DNA from: Diploschistes diacapsis
Lineage: Eukaryota
Reading direction: 5' to 3'
DNA length: 44,453 nucleotides
Assembly (NCBI GenBank): GCA_023645945.1
Contig: JALAIB010000031.1
Span: 1-44,453, forward strand
Numbering within the stretch: position 1 is the first letter of the stretch; each line of letters opens with the position of its first letter. The position numbers and the translations under genes are program-made. This document shows positions 12,693 through 37,990 of this stretch, in pieces. The notes below the pieces were generated by a model that made no database searches, was not told the DNA's origin, and worked only from the letters and a program-made list of their open reading frames with translations.

Positions 12693-13824
12693 TGAGCTTA
12701 GATTAGCGGGGATGCTCTTTGATTCTGTTATTACGTGCGAAAGTGATTATACGAAGATGCATTCTTTCCCGAAGGCCTCTTCCCTGATAGCAAAGCAAAG
12801 GAGACGCTTCCCTATATGTCAGATGTTTGTCATAACAGGTAAAGTTAGGTGTTTGAGATTCATTTCTTCGCCGAGTTTGTGTGCCCTTACTTTACAGCTT
12901 ATAGTTCATATGCACCTTCCTCCAAAGGAATCCCCTGGCCGTTTCTCGGTCAAAGCGCTTCGACCACCTTATTTTATACTCAAATCAGCGTTCCTGACGC
13001 TTTAGGTTCAACATGTTGATATTTCCTTTTATACCTGTACATTCTTATAACTCGAGTCGATCATTCTCTGTTTGTCTTTTATTCAGGGTCAATAGATTTA
13101 GTGATTATCTATACGAGATGCTTGGATGAACTCAGTTTTCTGGCTCAGCGCATCAACCACATTAGGATAACTGGAGCCCAAAATCAGTCTTCGAGCTCAT
13201 GGGCTCCCTTAGGCGCAATCAAAAATCCTCGCTAGGATTGAACCTTCCTTTCTGAAGGTTAAGCACAACGCTACGACAGTGCGCAACTTGAACTCAATAT
13301 CCATTGGACCTATAGTTCGACGAAGGTGACGCCGTGACGGCCTAGTGAGCGAAGCGATATACTTTATTAATTCTTAAGATGAAGGCTGCGGATATCTGTA
13401 AGACTACCTCTCCTATCCTTAGGTCACGTGGCCACCTGATTTCAATAAGAGCTTGAAGGACAGGGGACGGTAAGTCTGGGAAAGAGCTCAGGCGATGGGT
13501 GGCCTGTGCGAACTAAGGTGAGCAGAGGGGATGAGTTTGAAGCACATCAACTGAGGTTCTGAGCTCCGAAGGCCTACTTTTTCACATGATCACAATAATC
13601 TCGGATCTTGAAGCACTCCATCCAGTTGCATTGATCTCGGGATACTATTTCGACCGAACGCGGCCTTGGTTGGCAGAAACTAGGCGAAGTAAAGGTTCCA
13701 CAGCCCCAATACTCCTTTCCGACTTGTCCGGAAAATTGATTACAGAGCACGCTCGCGAGAACAACCACCCTCCTTCCCGTCCTCTCCAAACCCCTTACCC
13801 CTTTCTCTAAACCCTAGTCTTCAC

Positions 13825-14189
13825 TCAAGGATCACAAGTATATTCATTATCGCTAATGCAGTAACACCCCGCCGCCATCTCCGTGTCTCCGCACGGCCCC
13901 GCCGTGAACGTGCAGCACCTAGGGTCGCCGTTCGGCTGAGTGCCGCAAGTGACTGCTCCGGGTGGGCAGGGAATTACTTGGCGCTTCACGCTGGGCGGTG
14001 GAGAGCAGCATTTGGGCTCGAGCTCGGTGCCGCAGCCTGCTGCTGGTTAGGAGGAAGATATCATGTCTGGGAGGGAGATGTACCGAAGGTGGGTGGGATG
14101 CAAACGGGACCGGGGCCACGCTTCTCGAGCGGAGAGGCGAAGGTGCCGAGGGCGGAGAGGAGGCATGCTAGTGCGATGACTGACTTCAT
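13825..14189 (-). CDS. Small secreted cysteine-rich precursor (105 aa) with two Kex2-type KR sites, 2 exons (14189-14084, 14036-13825)
   Basis: Spliced translation: MKSVIALACLLSALGTFASPLEKRGPGPVCIPPTFGCGTELEPKCCSPPPSVKRQVIPCPPGAVTCGTQPNGDPRCCTFTAGPCGDTEMAAGCYCISDNEYTCDP*. Intron 14037-14083 reads GTACAT..CTAAC..CAG. It has a hydrophobic signal peptide, 12 Cys in the mature region and an upstream TATAAA. Confidence 0.85.
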
Positions 14190-14315
14190 GTTGGCTGATG
14201 GCTCGCGAGGCGAATATTAAGTCTATTTGATGAATTTGAATGAAGGCCTCGATGTCTTGAAGAGAGAGCGAGATGGGCGTGACGGGAGAGGATTGGAGAG
14301 GACGGGTTCCCCATC

Positions 14316-14321
14316 TTTATA
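14316..14321 (-). promoter_or_regulatory. Candidate TATA box of the small secreted peptide gene
   Basis: Minus-strand GAGTATAAAGATGG lies about 127 nt upstream of the ATG at 14189 and is followed by a CT-rich tract typical of fungal core promoters. Confidence 0.5.
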
Positions 14322-15039
14322 CTCGAGCTGCACAGCCCTTGGACGATGAAAGTACGACTTGCGGTAGGATAGGAAAGTCCAGCTCGATGTTCTCGTACGC
14401 TTTGTACGTAATGGCTCAGAGAGTTTTTCGTTTCCACATGAGGCCAAGCAAACGAGCTTCGCTGGATCGCACTCATAACGTGGCAGACGTGGCTAACTGT
14501 AAGCTTCTGCCGCGTCTTCTACCCCGAGCCAATCTCCTCTGAAGCTCTCCTGGCCCAACCGGAATACCCAATTCGTAGACCGATCCGAATTGAAGGTAAC
14601 TCAGCATAAGCTTAGTGTATGAAAAACTTCTTCAAAGCTGGATTGAGTCGTCCCGCGTGCGGCATCTAGCTGTACATTTCCCGTGCCTTTAGATCGCCAC
14701 GTGCGACGGTGCGAGGGGAGCACGAGGCTATGCAGCTAAAGAGCGCAGAGATGGTTGAACGATGTGGCTAAAAGCTGACAACGGCTGGTGACGGCCCCCC
14801 GAACCCAGGATTGCGGTAATGGGCCAAACCCGGTAAGATGTTGCCGAACGGAATGTTCGCCGATTTAGTCACAGAAACTCGAAGGCTCGAAATCTTACTG
14901 TTGGCCCTGGTTCAAACGAGTTGATTGGGAAAGGGATTTAGCTTTTTGCAACCCGTCCGTGCCGTACTGTAGGTTTCTCGGGCTTCTTTCCGTAAGGCTC
15001 TGATAAAGTTTCCGCGAGAGTCCGACATCGTCGTTGGTG

Positions 15040-16450
15040 ATATCAACTTATAGCGTCGAAGAAATTGCAGTTTGTCTGCTGATGATCTCTGATCCAGATC
15101 GGGGTCTTCAACTACAAAAGCGCTGGAGAGTAGTATTCCAAGACGCGGTGTGTTGCTCGTGTATGCCCAAATGAGAGGAGTAACGACAGTATATTCGAAA
15201 TTGCACCTGCCTGGATGGATTAGCCCATATCATTTCCCGTCACTGGGGCTCACGTATGGAACCTGTCTTCCTGCCATGTCCACGAAAATTCGAATATATC
15301 CTCGGTATGTGCGTAGGTTTCCAATGGACTTAATTTTCAACCCCGTCGAGGCACCTTGTCAGATGGGCACGCTAATGGCCTCATCTCGTTCATGCGCTAA
15401 TCCATTCAGAGTTGCCTAGCCTTCAGCTTATTAGCCAAGGCATTGTTCGACTTATTACTTCCTTCTTTATGAATTCGAGCCTCAGACTGCTAATGCACCG
15501 CGTAATATCACGCTCATAGCCCGGCCTCTTCTTTGCCATAATCAGCCGGATCAATATGACGCCGATTGATAGCCCAGTTCAGAATGACTACCATCTCTTT
15601 TCCTCAATGAGTCTGTAGCCACACCTGTACTGTCCATCCACTAGCGTTGCTCAATGATTCGACTGATTGCAATGGAAGGATGCAGAGCTAGTTCGCAGAT
15701 GAAACATTGCCCAGGTAAGCTTGTGGAAGTATGGAGAACTCCTGATCCGCGGTATGTGCCCAAAGAGTCCTCGTGCAGTAGCGAAAGTCAACTGATCATG
15801 TGGATGCATTCATTGCGTTTTGTGAGAATGGCCTGGACATTTCTTAGTCTTCTTGCTTGGAAATATACCGGGCAGTCTGACACCTAGTGCTCAATAGTCT
15901 AAGAAGAAGAAGTCGTGAAAGTGGAAGACTGCGTTACCTAAGTAAGACTCAACATGAGGCCAGAAACCCAGACAGCGGAAGAACAAGAGCAAGCATAAGG
16001 TCCTCGAAGCATTGTTGCAGATGGTCAGCGTATAAGCGCTCTCCGTTCCCGGCATGGATGGTTCCGAGAAGCTCATCCGGCAGGATTTAGTGGACGATCA
16101 ACATAGGTGAATCGAGCGTGGCTCCTTTGCTGCATATACATCAGTTCTACCAAAGATCAGACGTGGATGTCTGGCCGTCAGCTTTGAAATTATCTTTTCT
16201 TGCACATGTCATTGAATCTTTTTGATTAGAATGAGCAGCTCAAGCTATGGTCCATTGCTGGAATCAGCATATGCTTTATCAGGCTGATAGGCGTACCTCG
16301 AAGAAACATTAGCAGCTGCTCAGATATACAGGAGGAACATGAGCACCCATTGTTGATAGAGCGGTGCCAGCCTCAAGAGATCGATCAAGAACGCAACTCA
16401 TCTTCGGTGATACGCAGTTGAGCACGGCTGGTCGAGCATCCCATAGTCCA
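15040..16450 (+). pseudogene. Possible degraded coding remnant with an ankyrin-like fragment
   Basis: Protein-like stretches broken by stops, e.g. KHKVLEALLQMVSV*ALSVPGMDGSEKLIRQDL and, at ~16291-16446, AYLEETLAAAQ..**SGASLKRSIKNATHLR*YAVEHGWSSIP*, which resembles the ankyrin TPLHYAxxxG pattern. No intact model could be built. Confidence 0.25.
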
Positions 16451-32402: not shown

Positions 32403-33425
32403 ATCGGTAGCGTGTTCTCAGCTCTCGTACCTGCATGCGAGGCACTTTCAGTCCTGGAGGGTTTCTCACTAGCCGTTACCTCTGTTCTGTGTGCGTTTGA
32501 GGTAGCTTTAGGTTGTTTTGACGTCTGGTTGCTAGCACGGGATGAGTTGTAGTGTAGTGCCTGGGTAGTTCGGTCTATTTCGGGATTTAAAGTTGTGGCG
32601 TCAAGGAGGCTGGTGAGAGGGCTCGGCGTTTCCCTTGCGGTGGGAAGTTGTAAGCCATGCATTGACGACTAAGATGATTGGTTGGGATTGATTGAATAAT
32701 GCTTGCATAATTTTCATAAAATTATGAAGGCATTATATTTTTCCTCCTATTTCCGGCATTATCTTCACCATTTGTTAGAAACTGTTTTTTTTTCGAGATT
32801 TGAGTTTTCGTTGATTGGATATTAATTAATGTATGGGGTCGTTAATGCTTAATTGATTTTTAAATCAGTTATGTTAATTAATTATACATAGGTTGACATT
32901 TCTCAGAAGACCGACTCTGCAAGATGATTCAGTGGCTTGGCCTTAACTTTGCGCCACCGGGTCATTAGGTGATCATGACATCACCCTACCTGCATACTAT
33001 CATCACCATCTCAAGGAAACTTCAGGGCTGGTCAACTCCCACCTAGTTGGTATTTCGGGATGTAGTTATGTTCGTAAGAAACTTTGTAGGCAATCTTTAA
33101 GCGGGGAAGCTTGTGTTTCTGCGCCACTGGATGCCTCCCGATTGTCTGCTCATTGACTTTTCGACTTTGGACAAGATTTGCACCCTAGATTGGGTAGCCC
33201 CATGCCACTGGCCACAATCGCACACGCCCGTTTTGCTGCTCCTACTGTTTCTGCTGCAACTTGCTGTGAGCGGGACAGAGAACATCTTTGAGTTATTGCA
33301 GCCTTCACCGAGAGAGATTACTACCAAAGAAACGACTGCTACTGCTTTGGGCTGCCCGCTGGATGAGATGCTCGTCTAATCTCCAGAACACTTCCGACCT
33401 ATGACCGGGAAGTGTGGCGAGAAAA

Positions 33426-36400
33426 ATGGTTGACGGTACCGGCGCCGACAGCCAGAGTTCTCTTCCCACACCAGTTACCACTAGCATTACAGACTTTGCC
33501 TTGCCTACTTCATCAGAACCCCAGCAGTCTTCGTGGGATACAGGTGGCGATGTTGCCGCAGCTTCCAAGGATTCGGGACGGTTATCCTCCTCTCCCACCG
33601 ACACCGGCTTCGGTCCTCTCAGGCCCAGCACTCAAGACCGAGTCTTCCCCATACGATCCGTTGTCTCCGTCGACGCAAACCTCACCCCTTCTCTTCCTTC
33701 CGACGATGGCGACAGTTTCCCGGGCGTGTCAGCGTCGAAGGAAACGGTACAGGCGCTAAAAAGGAGGTCTGATACAAGGAAGTACTCCAACGCCAGCATT
33801 CCTTCGGCAAGGTGTGCTTCTGAATCCAGTTATGGAGACACTAGCTCAAGGCATTCGAGGGTCACATCAAGGGAAAATTCCGTTATGGGGGATTTATCGA
33901 CCGACCGCACTTCACCTCTTCACTCCACAGCGCAAGACAACACAGCCTATGCCTCGGGCGACGATGACGATAGAAGAAGCAGAGACAGGCAAATGAACAT
34001 CGTGAGCGACGACCTCGGATCAGAAAGTGAGGTCGCGCCTTCGACGAAGAACGCCAGCGCATCTGTCAGGAGCGGTAGACCAGCGTCAATCAGGAGCTAT
34101 GCAGAAGACGGAGCGTTTGTGACTGCAAGGTTCAAGCACATCGTAACCGAGGAGGGTCATTTGGTAGTCACAGGACGTGGCGGTGATACTTTGCAGAGGT
34201 GTGAAGACGAACCCATACATATACCCGGCGCCATACAGAGCTTTGGTCTCTTAGTCGTACTGAGGGAAGAAGGTGATGGCAAGTTGAGCGTCCGCGTTGT
34301 GAGTGAAAATTCGAAGAGGATCATCGGCTATGCGCCCAAGCAGCTGTTCGCCTTGGAAAGCTTTTGCGACATCTTCTCCGATGATCAAGCGGATAACTTA
34401 CTCGACCATCTGGAATTTATCAAAGACGCAGATTCTGACCCTGCTTCCGACGGTCCCGCGGTTTTTACTCTGTCGGTGAGGTCTCCAGCCTCCAAAAGGT
34501 CGCTCAAGATGTGGTGTGCTATGCACATCAATCCCAAGAGCCCGGACATGATCATATGCGAATTCGAGCTGGAGAATGATCCTGAATTCCCTCTGATACC
34601 TCACGATGAGTTTGTCCCAGACAATCCGGAAAGCACTTTGCAGAGCAATCCAACAGCGGACGAACTTGCCGAGAGCACGAGCAACCTCAGCAAACCTTTA
34701 CGCGTATTACGAAGTGCCCGAAGGAAGAATGGTGATGCCGCTGCGATGGAAGTTTTCAATATCCTGTCTCAGGTCCAGGAGCAGCTCGCTGCAGCCCCGA
34801 GTCTTGAAGCCTTTCTCAAGATACTGGTCGGCGTCGTCAAGGAGCTAACGGGGTTCCATCGTGTGATGGTATACCAGTTCGACACGGAATGGAATGGCAG
34901 AGTGGTCACAGAGCTGGTGGATCCACGCGCCACCAAGGATCTTTATAAGGGCCTTAATTTTCCCGCCTCCGACATCCCGAAGCAAGCCCGAGATCTGTAC
35001 AAGATTAACAAGGTGCGCTTGCTATATGACAGGGACCATGAGACCGCCAGGCTCGTATGCAGAACCATGGAAGACCTTGAGGACCCAATCGATATGTCAT
35101 ATGCTTACCTTCGAGCCATGTCACCCATACACATCAAATATCTCGCCAACATGGCCGTCCGATCTTCGATGTCCATATCTATCAATGCGTTCAGCGAGCT
35201 CTGGGGGCTGATTTCCTGCCACTCGTACGGTCCCAAAGGCATGCGGGTATCGTTTCCCATACGAAAGATGTGCAGATTAATTGGGGACTCGGCGTCTAGG
35301 AACATTGAAAGATTATCCTACGCATCGAGGTTGCAGGCTAGGAAGCTCATTAACACACTACCCACAGCTAAAAATTCCTCCGGCTACATCATCGCTTCGT
35401 CCGAAGACCTGCTTGCTTTATTCAGCGCCGATTACGGACTATTATCGATTCGAGACGAGATCAAAATACTCGGAAACCTCGGTCCAACCCAGGAAGCGCT
35501 AGCGCTAGTCGAGTACCTCCGTCTACGGAAACCAATATCCGTATTTACCTCTCAGGATATCCGCTTTGACTTCCCAGATTTGCGGTATGAGCCAGGATTC
35601 AGGGTCATCGCAGGCCTTTTGCTCGTACCGTTGTCTGCGGGTGGAGACGACTTTATCGTAAGGTTATTACCGCAACCCTTTACGCCAATACTAACCTTGC
35701 TCAGGTATTTTTTCGCAAGGGTCAACTTCGTGAAGTTAAGTGGGCGGGCAATCCACACGAAAAATTTATCAAGGAAGGTACCGAGGGCTACCTCGAGCCG
35801 AGGAAGAGCTTCAAGACGTGGAGCGAGACGGTCGTCGGTAAATGCAAGGAATGGACAGAAGAGCAGATCGAGACCGCGGCGGTCCTGTGTTTGGTTTATG
35901 GAAAGTTCATCGATGTATGGCGCCAGAAGGAGGCGGCGCTGCAGAGCACCCAACTCACCCGCTTGCTTCTTGCGAACTCGGCCCACGAGGTCAGGACGCC
36001 GCTGAATGCCATTATCAACTATCTTGAAATAGCGATGGAAGGTGTGCTCGACCCGGAGATGCGAGAAAACCTATCCAAGTCCCACTCTGCCTCAAAGTCC
36101 CTGATCTACGTAATAAACGATCTGCTCGATTTGACAAAGACAGAGCAAGGAAACGAGTTGGTCAGAGACGATGTCTTCGATCTTCCCGCCACCGTCAAAG
36201 AAGCTACCGACATGTTTGCCAACGACGCCAAACGCAAGAAACTAACGTACGATGTAATTGTCAACCAGGGAGTTCCACAGAACGTGGTTGGCGATCAGAG
36301 GAGGGTACGGCAGGTCATATCGAACGTCACGGCCAACGCGATCCAGCACACGTCAACAGGCTTTGTCAGAATCGAGCTGTGGCTCGCCCGCAGCGAAGGA

Positions 36401-37990
36401 CAGCATGCCGACATAGACATTGTGATCCAGGATACCGGAGTCGGCATGTCAACCAAAAAGTTGGATGAGCTCTTCATGCAGCTTGAGCAGGTGCAAAGTG
36501 AGGAGGTAGAAGATTTGCTCGAGAAATCAAGTTCATCAATCAAAGCCATTGGTCCTACGAGAACCGAAAGTAGTACGCTCGGTCTTGGGCTTGCTGTGGT
36601 CAGCCGCATCATACGAAACATGAACGGTCAGCTTCGTCTCAAGTCGGAAGAAGGCGTGGGATCGCGCTTCGTTATCCAACTGGGGTTTGATCTGCCTTCT
36701 GCGGGCGAGAAGGGCGAGCTGACCGAGGCCCCCGCTGCAGGGACGACGACAGCGTTGTCTCATCCCACGACGCCACCAGCGACCGAGGACGAGGTTATGC
36801 TGGTAGCTAAAACGAACGAGATGGTTGAGAAGCTCCATCCCAACGCCACCTGTCGAGGCAGTCGCGGAAGCATGAACAGCATGAAAAGCACGGCCAGCCT
36901 ACAGAGCTTCAAAAGTACTTCCAGCGGCAGGAGCGATGTCGATCGTCTCATCGAGGCCATTCAGGAGCCGCACATGGTGAGCTCCGCTTCGGTCAAGTCC
37001 CCCTCTGGAAGCATGCGACGGAAGTCGAGCCACGGGTCATTGTCAAGGCCTTCTTTCAAGCGGAACAATTCTTATACGCTTGAACCCACAAGGTTCAATC
37101 CACCCGCGCCGGGCGAAGCTCTCGTAGCAGATCAAGGCACTCCCATCAAGCCCATCCGTATCCAGGAAGACGACGAAGAGATGCCGGCGCCCCCCTCGGA
37201 TAGCCGGTCAAAGGCTCGGGTGTCGTTTGAAGTAGCCGCGGAAAAGGCCCGAAAGCCGAAAGCTCTGAGTGGCGATCATCTGAACGTCCTTGTGGCCGAA
37301 GACGACCCCATTAACAGCAAGATCATCACCAAGCGTCTCGAAAAGTTTGGTCACAAGGTCTACTGCACGGTCAACGGCGAGGAGTGCTCTTCTGCCTATG
37401 GAGAAAGGCACGGCTTTTACGACGTCGTGCTCATGGACATGCAGGTAAGTTTGCTTCGCAATGCATTTGGCCGTTTTCTAATGCCTATTCAGATGCCTAT
37501 AGTAGACGGCCTGACATCCACCAAGATGATACGCTCCTACGAGAAAACCCATCCACGAGAAATCCTATCCGAGCGCGCCGCAAAGAACGGACGCATTCCC
37601 ATCGTCGCGGTATCGGCATCTCTGGTGGAGAAGGAGCGGCAAAAGTACGTCGACAGCGGCTTCGACGGCTGGATCCTCAAGCCCATCGACTTCAAGCGGC
37701 TCAGCGTGCTGTTGAACGCCATCGTCGACGACGCCGTGCGCGAGAGCTGCCTGTACGAGCCCGGGCAGTGGGAGAGCGGCGGGTGGTTTGCGCCGAGGCA
37801 GCCCGACCTCTTCGCTCCCTCGGCCACGAAGCCCGACTCGGAGAACAGGGTCGGTAGCGGTGCCCCCGTGCGGTCTTTCCCGGTTCATGGCGGGGAGGAT
37901 CCGCTTGATGACGAGATCTCGAGGGAGCAGAGGCGGTTGGGCGGGCTGGAGAAGACGGCGACGAAGGATGCGTCTAGGCCGGAACGATGA
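33426..37990 (+). CDS. fphA: Fungal phytochrome (PAS-GAF-PHY-histidine kinase-receiver), ~1489 aa, 3 exons (33426-35657, 35705-37444, 37493-37990)
   Basis: Bilin-attachment RCEDEPIHIPGAIQ, GFHRVMVYQF, PASDIPKQAR, AMSPIHIKYLANM, WAGNP, PRKSF, H-box SAHEVRTPLN, ATPase NAIQHT/DTGVG/GLGLA, and receiver VAEDD..VLMDMQMP..LKP. Introns 35658-35704 and 37445-37492. Confidence 0.96.

Follow-up and report, generated by a model that had tools for sequence, protein, structure and literature searches.

A two-exon gene for a putative Kex2-processed precursor of disulfide-rich modules in Diploschistes diacapsis

The contig JALAIB010000031.1 of Diploschistes diacapsis (GenBank assembly GCA_023645945.1), analyzed over positions 1 to 44,453 and called here the window (44,453 nucleotides), carries on the minus strand, between positions 14189 and 13825, a short spliced gene that escapes simple lists of open reading frames (ORFs). 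It is read here, at slightly better than even confidence, as an intact gene of a filamentous fungus whose two exons encode a pre-pro-protein of 105 amino acids (aa), which the Kex2 protease probably cuts at both of its Lys-Arg (KR) dipeptides, and which belongs to a rare family of disulfide-rich modules. From the sequence data, the gene is very probably genuine. Its credibility stands on the homology with a database protein, denoted P0004, on the uniqueness of the model among 37 tried, and on the fit of the intron to the local introns.

The spliced model is that of a predicted gene. It starts with the ATG at 14189, in the context CAACATGAAG, and ends with the TGA at 13827-13825. Coding exon 1 (14189-14084) holds 35 codons, whose product is denoted P0001, and the first base of a Gly codon; a phase 1 intron of 47 nt follows (14083-14037), with donor GTACAT, a branch site CTAAC ending 10 nt ahead of the intron 3' end, and a CAG acceptor; coding exon 2 (14036-13825) includes the TGA, and its product from 14034, of 69 aa, is denoted P0002. 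The exons, joined by script, give 318 nt, translated into 105 aa and a stop. This reproduces exactly the residues listed in an earlier note on this DNA, made from the letters alone, which had proposed a hidden 105-aa gene with a 47-nt intron and had remarked that the ORF track missed it. The gene is indeed missed by such lists because each exon is too short: counted from its ATG, the exon 1 ORF spans 42 codons, and in exon 2 the frame is open between 14046 and the final TGA, 73 aa from stop to stop.

All GT..AG joins of 35-400 nt that connect, without stop codons, a frame begun by an ATG with that of exon 2 were enumerated. Of the 37 open models obtained, 14189/14083/14037 alone unites the motif C-x6-C-G-T, an even number of Cys in the first module and a signal peptide. 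Two additional in-frame AGs are found within the intron, at 14044-14043 and 14041-14040. For comparison, introns were inferred in neighbouring genes. The segment 35658-35704, in a phytochrome gene, is taken as an intron because the Pfam PHY profile crosses there from one ORF to the next; it is also 47 nt long, with donor GTAAGG, CTAAC ending 10 nt before its end, and CAG. Two inferred introns of 49 nt (5404-5356 and 5791-5743, minus strand), in a PH-domain gene, have donors GTACGG and GTACGT, with CTAAC and CTGAC 10-11 nt from the end. Overall, the inferred neighbouring introns range between 47 and 49 nt, with CTRAC 10-11 nt from the end and a CAG or TAG acceptor, and very short, uniformly laid-out introns seem typical of this genome. 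Since its length, the position of CTAAC and the CAG are like those of the neighbours, the acceptor at 14037 is favoured over the AGs at 14040 and 14043.

The protein begins with 18 residues resembling a signal peptide (14189-14136): by inspection, an M-K n-region, a hydrophobic core of 13 residues with a grand average of hydropathy (GRAVY) of 2.29, and T-F-A at positions -3 to -1. The six-residue pro-part SPLEKR (14135-14118) closes with the first KR (residues 23-24), a candidate Kex2 site with Leu at P4, and is followed by GP-GP. Module 1 (residues 25-52; 14117-13987, across the intron) is an unpaired half-module of the N type (N-half) with four Cys, C-x6-C-G-T-x5-C-C. The second KR (residues 53-54; 13986-13981) lies within a linker of 12 residues between the modules, in the context S-V-K-R-Q-V. 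Module 2 (residues 55-105; 13980-13828), which begins with Gln, combines an N-half, C-x6-C-G-T-x7-C-C, with a C-half, C-x8-C-x-C-x7-C, so that its eight Cys enclose loops of 6, 9, 0, 6, 8, 1 and 7 residues.

The layout of the 105-aa protein is therefore N-half, linker, N-half plus C-half, with 13 Cys in all, one in the signal peptide, four in module 1 and eight in module 2. Both modules contain the motif C-x6-C-G-T-x(3 or 5)-P-[KR]-C-C. The reading frame is unbroken from ATG to stop, the stop standing two residues past the last Cys of a complete module, and the predicted products are rich in Pro and Gly. Signal-peptide-like N-terminus, SPLEKR pro-part, the modular arrangement of 4 + 8 Cys with the shared C-x6-C-G-T-x(3-5)-P-[KR]-C-C, and the initial Gln of module 2 are all present in the translation, as the earlier note had described them.

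The search for homologues proposed there was carried out by using HMMER phmmer, with P0002 as query, against 1,835,955,588 representative proteins, and returned two matches at E <= 0.001. The sole accepted relative is P0004 (366 aa, 43 Cys; E 3.3e-4). BLASTP aligns the two proteins without gaps over 42 residues, 23 of which are identical (55%, E 6e-12), and tblastn of P0004 against the exon 2 region gives E 2.9e-13. All eight Cys of module 2 align to P0004 residues 294-340, and the spacing x7-CC-x12-C-x6-C-x9-CC is the same in P0004 and in the window protein. The local alignment score of 141 was reached by none of 2000 shuffles (z 11.8), and by none of 2000 in which Cys were kept fixed (z 8.5).

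The other match, P0003 (724 aa, E 3.9e-5, above P0004), was rejected: it contains no Cys and matches only via a repeated PNGDP stretch. Four PNGDP-containing repeat copies of P0003 each match one loop of module 2, repeat targets being able to inflate the phmmer scores of short queries. Word-indexed protein searches, run with P0002 and with P0004 near their own lengths and with P0004 against shorter proteins, found nothing besides P0004; the pattern matches from two metagenome scans, 235 in one and 43 in the other, all failed confirmation by tblastn, and the ESM Atlas held no usable match to P0002 or P0004.

P0004 is a tandem array of two half-module types, the N-half C-x6-C-G-x(6-9)-CC and the C-half C-x8-C-x-C-x6-C. 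It contains four exact N-halves, N-half variants and four C-halves, arranged as three paired 8-Cys modules, one unpaired N-half with a KR on either side and one unpaired C-half at the very end. The window protein, with its two N-halves and one C-half, fits this module family, and the pattern common to the two can be written as N-half C-x6-C-G-x(6-9)-CC and C-half C-x8-C-x-C-x(6-7)-C, with Pro-rich linkers that often carry K-R-[QE]. Four of the six KR sites of P0004 lie in linkers, VSKRQ, ISKRE, VSKRQ and VCKRE, in all of which P4 is aliphatic and the residue behind the cut is Gln or Glu; V-S-N-R-E stands in a fifth linker. Because half-modules are repeated in P0004 with KR linkers, reading the window protein as a Kex2 precursor is reasonable.

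The gene model, the motifs and the homology with P0004 are established directly; from them we infer secretion, folding, both cleavages and a function, along the following lines. The 18-residue signal peptide would bring the protein into the endoplasmic reticulum, and the remaining 12 Cys would form six disulfides, each 4-Cys half-module probably being a disulfide-stapled beta-hairpin; secretion and oxidative folding are suggested by the signal peptide and by the even Cys counts. In the Golgi, Kex2 would cut after L-E-K-R (residue 24), the short pro-part being lost, and the exposed G-P-G-P may undergo trimming by a Ste13-type dipeptidyl aminopeptidase. A further Kex2 cut would probably follow within the flexible Pro-rich linker, behind residue 54 of the second K-R, and Kex1 would trim the basic residues. 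The resulting products would be a peptide of about 24-28 aa with two disulfides and one of 51 aa with four, whose N-terminal Gln can cyclise to pyroglutamate.

Such peptides would most likely be extracellular, protease-resistant ligands, inhibitors or effectors. The predicted isoelectric points (pI) are 4.5 for module 1 (charge -1.3) and 4.05 for module 2 (charge -5.3), and such acidic products speak against a cationic peptide acting on membranes and in favour of a stable ligand, inhibitor or effector outside the cell. Among effector, antimicrobial and signal, the three roles named originally, the antimicrobial one appears the least likely.

The first site, L-E-K-R, agrees at each of the positions considered with the Kex2 preferences, which call for an aliphatic residue such as Leu at P4 and for Lys-Arg at P2 and P1 (PMC8528282). 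The G-P-G-P that follows forms two X-Pro dipeptides, of the type of the XA/XP signature of Ste13 trimming (PMC6339444), a feature not included in the first description of the gene. Judged on sequence features of this kind, removal of the pro-part SPLEKR is quite likely, and separation of modules 1 and 2 by cleavage at the second KR would be slightly favoured.

Several observations weigh against the interpretation given so far, and those touching the second cleavage are considered first. The second KR site has Ser at P4, not the aliphatic residue preferred by Kex2 (PMC8528282). The equivalent linker of P0004 is without KR: it also measures 12 residues from CC to Cys, shares four of them with the window protein, and keeps P-P near its start and P right before the Cys, with E-T-D-L replacing V-K-R-Q. 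The missing KR is a hint of a structural linker, not a processing site. Moreover, two of the six KR sites of P0004 are inside half-modules, and KR is thus not always a boundary marker. The same gene could accordingly lose the pro-part alone, its mature form being a single chain of 81 (or 77) aa with 12 Cys, in which the second KR is incidental or shielded. This alternative is judged unlikely, with a weight that is still appreciable, as it has to account for several features of the same linker. Its K-R-Q-[VL] tetrapeptide is also that of two inter-module linkers of P0004, and at each of the four linker sites of P0004 the next residue is Gln or Glu, just as it is Gln here. The N-half of P0004 with KR on both sides indicates that an unpaired half-module seems able to stand alone. 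In the AlphaFold2 model, finally, the linker has no secondary structure and a low predicted local distance difference test score (pLDDT; block means 53-54), and is thus predicted to be unstructured. The original proposal of a Kex2 precursor freeing two peptides draws support from LEKR and from the KR linkers of P0004, and stays qualified at the second site, on account of the Ser at P4 and of the P0004 linker without KR.

Further adverse observations concern the gene itself. The usual donor consensus has G at +5; the donor GTACAT has A there, and the three inferred neighbouring donors all have G. Cys richness is within chance, since among 100 shuffled windows, 3 held a stop-free stretch of 51 aa with 9 Cys and 24 held one with at least 8 Cys. 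Codon usage is uninformative: the log-odds are 0.026 bits per codon in frame versus 0.020 and 0.031 in two antisense frames, in a test that is weak, being trained on 10 neighbouring-gene segments, two of which were cut out of frame. The similarity of module 1 to module 2 is not significant pairwise, as 57 of 2000 full shuffles and 262 of 2000 Cys-fixed shuffles match its score; the internal duplication proposed in the earlier note is not upheld by this comparison, and rests on the family pattern shared with P0004. The family is known from this single relative, and the better-scoring P0003 being spurious, E-values of this size can mislead for the P0002 query. The first 31 or so residues of P0004 are, in addition, without a signal peptide; residues 1-32 align to the read-through of the intron in the window, where tblastn reaches 14043 with A-P-G versus A-A-G just before C-G-T, and by its sequence the database model of P0004 probably starts inside an intron, with its true first exon missing.

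In the light of the codon usage, the Cys count, the donor without G at +5 and the presence here of 1.5 modules versus about 6 in P0004, the locus could be no working gene, but a chance pair of short ORFs or the unexpressed remnant of a longer, P0004-like multi-module gene. This is considered improbable. The similarity to P0004 reaches past the Cys framework, as indicated by the z of 8.5 with Cys fixed; no stop breaks the frame between the ATG and its end just past a complete module; splicing re-forms the family motif exactly, and the intron architecture is like that of the neighbours. A signal peptide and a canonical LEKR occur, moreover, in the correct order, and tblastn with P0004 shows no other significant module in the window. 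The preferred reading, an intact two-exon gene, is therefore kept.

No known family or fold could be assigned. Pfam gave no family at E <= 10 for P0001 and P0002, and for P0004 a chance match only (SMRP1, E 3.7); PDB sequences gave chance-level matches only, such as alphavirus E1 (E 1.8-2.2) and urokinase (E 0.51). AlphaFold2 models, built on a two-row alignment, reached a mean pLDDT of 60.0 for P0002 and 68.3 for module 2; both are of low confidence, which is again an adverse point. In the module 2 model, two beta-hairpins are predicted, one per half-module (residues 9-14/20-24 and 39-43/46-49). Foldseek against the PDB, proposed earlier together with structure prediction, returned nothing at E <= 0.001, the top rows having E >= 1.9 and probability <= 0.14, and VIA-align found none of 48,161 chains at Z >= 2. 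The novelty put forward in the earlier note, which spoke of a possibly undescribed family, is thus not removed by the Pfam, PDB sequence, Foldseek and VIA-align comparisons.

In order, the insignificant Foldseek matches show granulins first in both lists, then various small domains rich in disulfides, along with a few knot toxins, and a "granulin-like" fold is, given the models, a lead only. The stretch C-x6-C-x(7-9)-CC is similar to the start of knot and granulin motifs, which would speak for such a fold. Hydrophobins have eight Cys in the pattern C-CC-C-C-CC-C; here, there is one CC pair per module and no Pfam match, in agreement with the earlier statement that the pattern is not that of a hydrophobin. 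The granulin motif of 12 Cys, C-C-CC-CC-CC-CC-C-C, also differs from the pattern found, C-C-CC-C-C-C-C. Granulin, knottin and hydrophobin identities were rejected because of the Cys pattern and the null family and fold searches together.

That the modules are highly divergent members of a described fold, granulin-like stacked beta-hairpins or an inhibitor cystine knot, is very improbable: the two predicted hairpins, the Foldseek matches to granulins (1g26, 2jyt, 2jye, 1qgm), which top both lists, and to knot toxins (7rz3, 1qk6, 2n8k), and the halves, unpaired halves and protease-released units of about 6 kDa likewise found in progranulin (PMC4527844) are outweighed by the insignificance of every Foldseek match, the null VIA-align and Pfam results, the different granulin Cys pattern, loop lengths unlike those of the Fungi1 knottins (10.1101/2025.05.13.653811), the reported absence of granulin genes from fungi (PMC4527844) and the low confidence of the underlying models.

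The surroundings of the gene are fungal. Genes of the window include those for a phytochrome histidine kinase, an FMN-dependent dehydrogenase, a PPR protein and a CRAL/TRIO protein; the phytochrome-type histidine kinase extends over two frames at 33405-37990 (plus strand), with PAS_2, GAF, PHY, HisKA, HATPase_c and Response_reg domains. A candidate TATA box, TATAAA, is located at 14321-14316 (minus strand), 127-132 nt upstream of the ATG, and is supported by the motif only. From 12700 to 16420, no further ORF reaches 120 aa, and the nine ORFs of 79-175 aa have no Pfam match above the cut-off. An antisense gene was considered and rejected, the 175-aa plus-strand frame at 13693-14220 being without a Pfam match above the cut-off.

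A decayed module copy downstream was also rejected: tblastn with P0004 matches 13705-13667 (E 2.8) and 13501-13445 (E 3.7), minus strand, where the similarity is stop-broken and misspaced. The two segments share one frame past the stop codon, and the first is a G-C-G-T...C stretch; they are most likely due to chance. The GC content of the stretch, 0.47-0.54, is as in the rest of the window. The picture of a gene-poor, decaying stretch drawn in the earlier note holds insofar as the region is somewhat sparse; with ordinary GC content and no significant relic, decay is not borne out. The 2.2 kb or so upstream of the gene (14190-16420), where no ORF reaches 120 aa and ORFs of 80-110 aa have no Pfam match, could hide short multi-exon genes.

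Altogether, the gene probably encodes a small secreted Cys-rich precursor, orphan-like and belonging to a sparsely sampled module family. In practice, it is one more orphan secreted peptide, predicted from sequence, and an example of how two-exon peptide genes slip past ORF-based annotation. Disulfide-stabilised peptides of the type envisaged are stable scaffolds, often inhibitors, toxins or signals. Small secreted Cys-rich proteins and Kex2-released peptides are both many in fungi, and are rarely described in combination.

A comparable class is that of the effectors with a Kex2-processed pro-domain (K2PP; Outram et al., 10.1101/2020.05.27.120113; PMC8528282). Like them, the window protein is Cys-rich and secreted by prediction, with a pro-part rich in disorder-promoting residues that ends in L-x-K-R right after the signal peptide; LEKR at residues 21-24 of 105 corresponds to the K2PP motif. 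Unlike in K2PP proteins, the pro-part has just six residues, with four before KR and two before LxxR, where the published screen requires more than 4 aa before the motif, and a second KR divides two modules, while K2PP proteins give one mature domain. Nothing here marks the organism as a pathogen or the protein as an effector.

The Fungi1 knottins, including Avr9 and the Histoplasma KNOT genes, have six Cys with loops of 3-4, 8, 3-6, 2 and 6-12 residues (10.1101/2025.05.13.653811), which the loops of module 2 do not follow. They resemble the gene as predicted here in being small secreted Cys-rich peptides with two exons and a propeptide lost before or during secretion, often missed by gene callers. 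The position of the intron compares in part: there it precedes the whole Cys motif; here it divides module 1 and leaves module 2 entirely within exon 2. There is no sequence or fold match to them in the searches described above. Some distance is also kept from the killer toxins when all sequence searches made here are considered, as none turned up any similarity to the K1 or KP6 preprotoxins. These preprotoxins of yeast and Ustilago are likewise precursors of secreted products, from which Kex2 makes two polypeptides with disulfides; in them, a spacer peptide separates the subunits, and the folds are unrelated.

With regard to progranulin, the protease that cuts it is not known to be Kex2. The likeness lies in the tandem Cys-rich modules made of N- and C-halves, with unpaired halves and short protease-cut linkers releasing peptides of about 6 kDa (PMC4527844); the differences are the other Cys motif, the lack of any Pfam Granulin match and the lack of granulin genes in fungi reported in that source.

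Another term of comparison is given by the Kex2-processed repeat proteins (KEPs; Le Marquer et al. 2019, PMC6339444; Umemura 2020, PMC7329392). Le Marquer et al. define them by a signal peptide, at least 4 fragments after KR/RR cuts and at least 3 similar repeats (PMC6339444), and Umemura by three or more tandem repeats, each 8 to 100 aa long, that lie between Kex2 sites (PMC7329392). The window protein has, by inspection, the signal peptide; its two KR sites give three fragments, two of them related, and its two units measure 28 and 51 aa, which is fewer repeats than either definition asks for. Like KEPs, it combines a signal peptide, related units split by KR and the X-Pro signature of Ste13 type after the first KR, and P0004 itself, many modules long and with KR in its linkers, has the look of a KEP. 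The difference is in the units, which here are disulfide-rich modules of 28-51 aa and in KEPs are short linear peptides or core peptides of RiPPs, which are ribosomally made peptides with post-translational modifications. In the main text of Umemura (PMC7329392), the words "Cysteine", "disulfide" and "Cys" do not occur, and six short strings of the module family had no match in the supplement text, possibly incomplete, of PMC6339444 and PMC7329392. In the latter survey, 2560 of 7878 KEPs are stand-alone, without a homologue (PMC7329392), which makes orphan precursors of the KEP type common and lineage restriction the rule.

Within this frame, it is a tentative proposal, conceivable at somewhat less than even chance, that this gene, together with P0004, gives a first sight of a fungal family not yet described, the "cysteine-rich KEPs", with interchangeable 4-Cys half-modules, each a disulfide-stapled beta-hairpin, released by Kex2 as stable peptides and capped by pyroglutamate. 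If so, the family would correspond in fungi to progranulin or to the plant multi-knottin precursors, and would be largely invisible in protein databases because its genes are short, split by introns and unannotated. The two published KEP surveys considered here treat short linear or cyclised peptides (PMC6339444, PMC7329392); if the cleavage proposed here is real, Kex2 precursors can also deliver folded, disulfide-stabilised mini-domains, and even half-domains.

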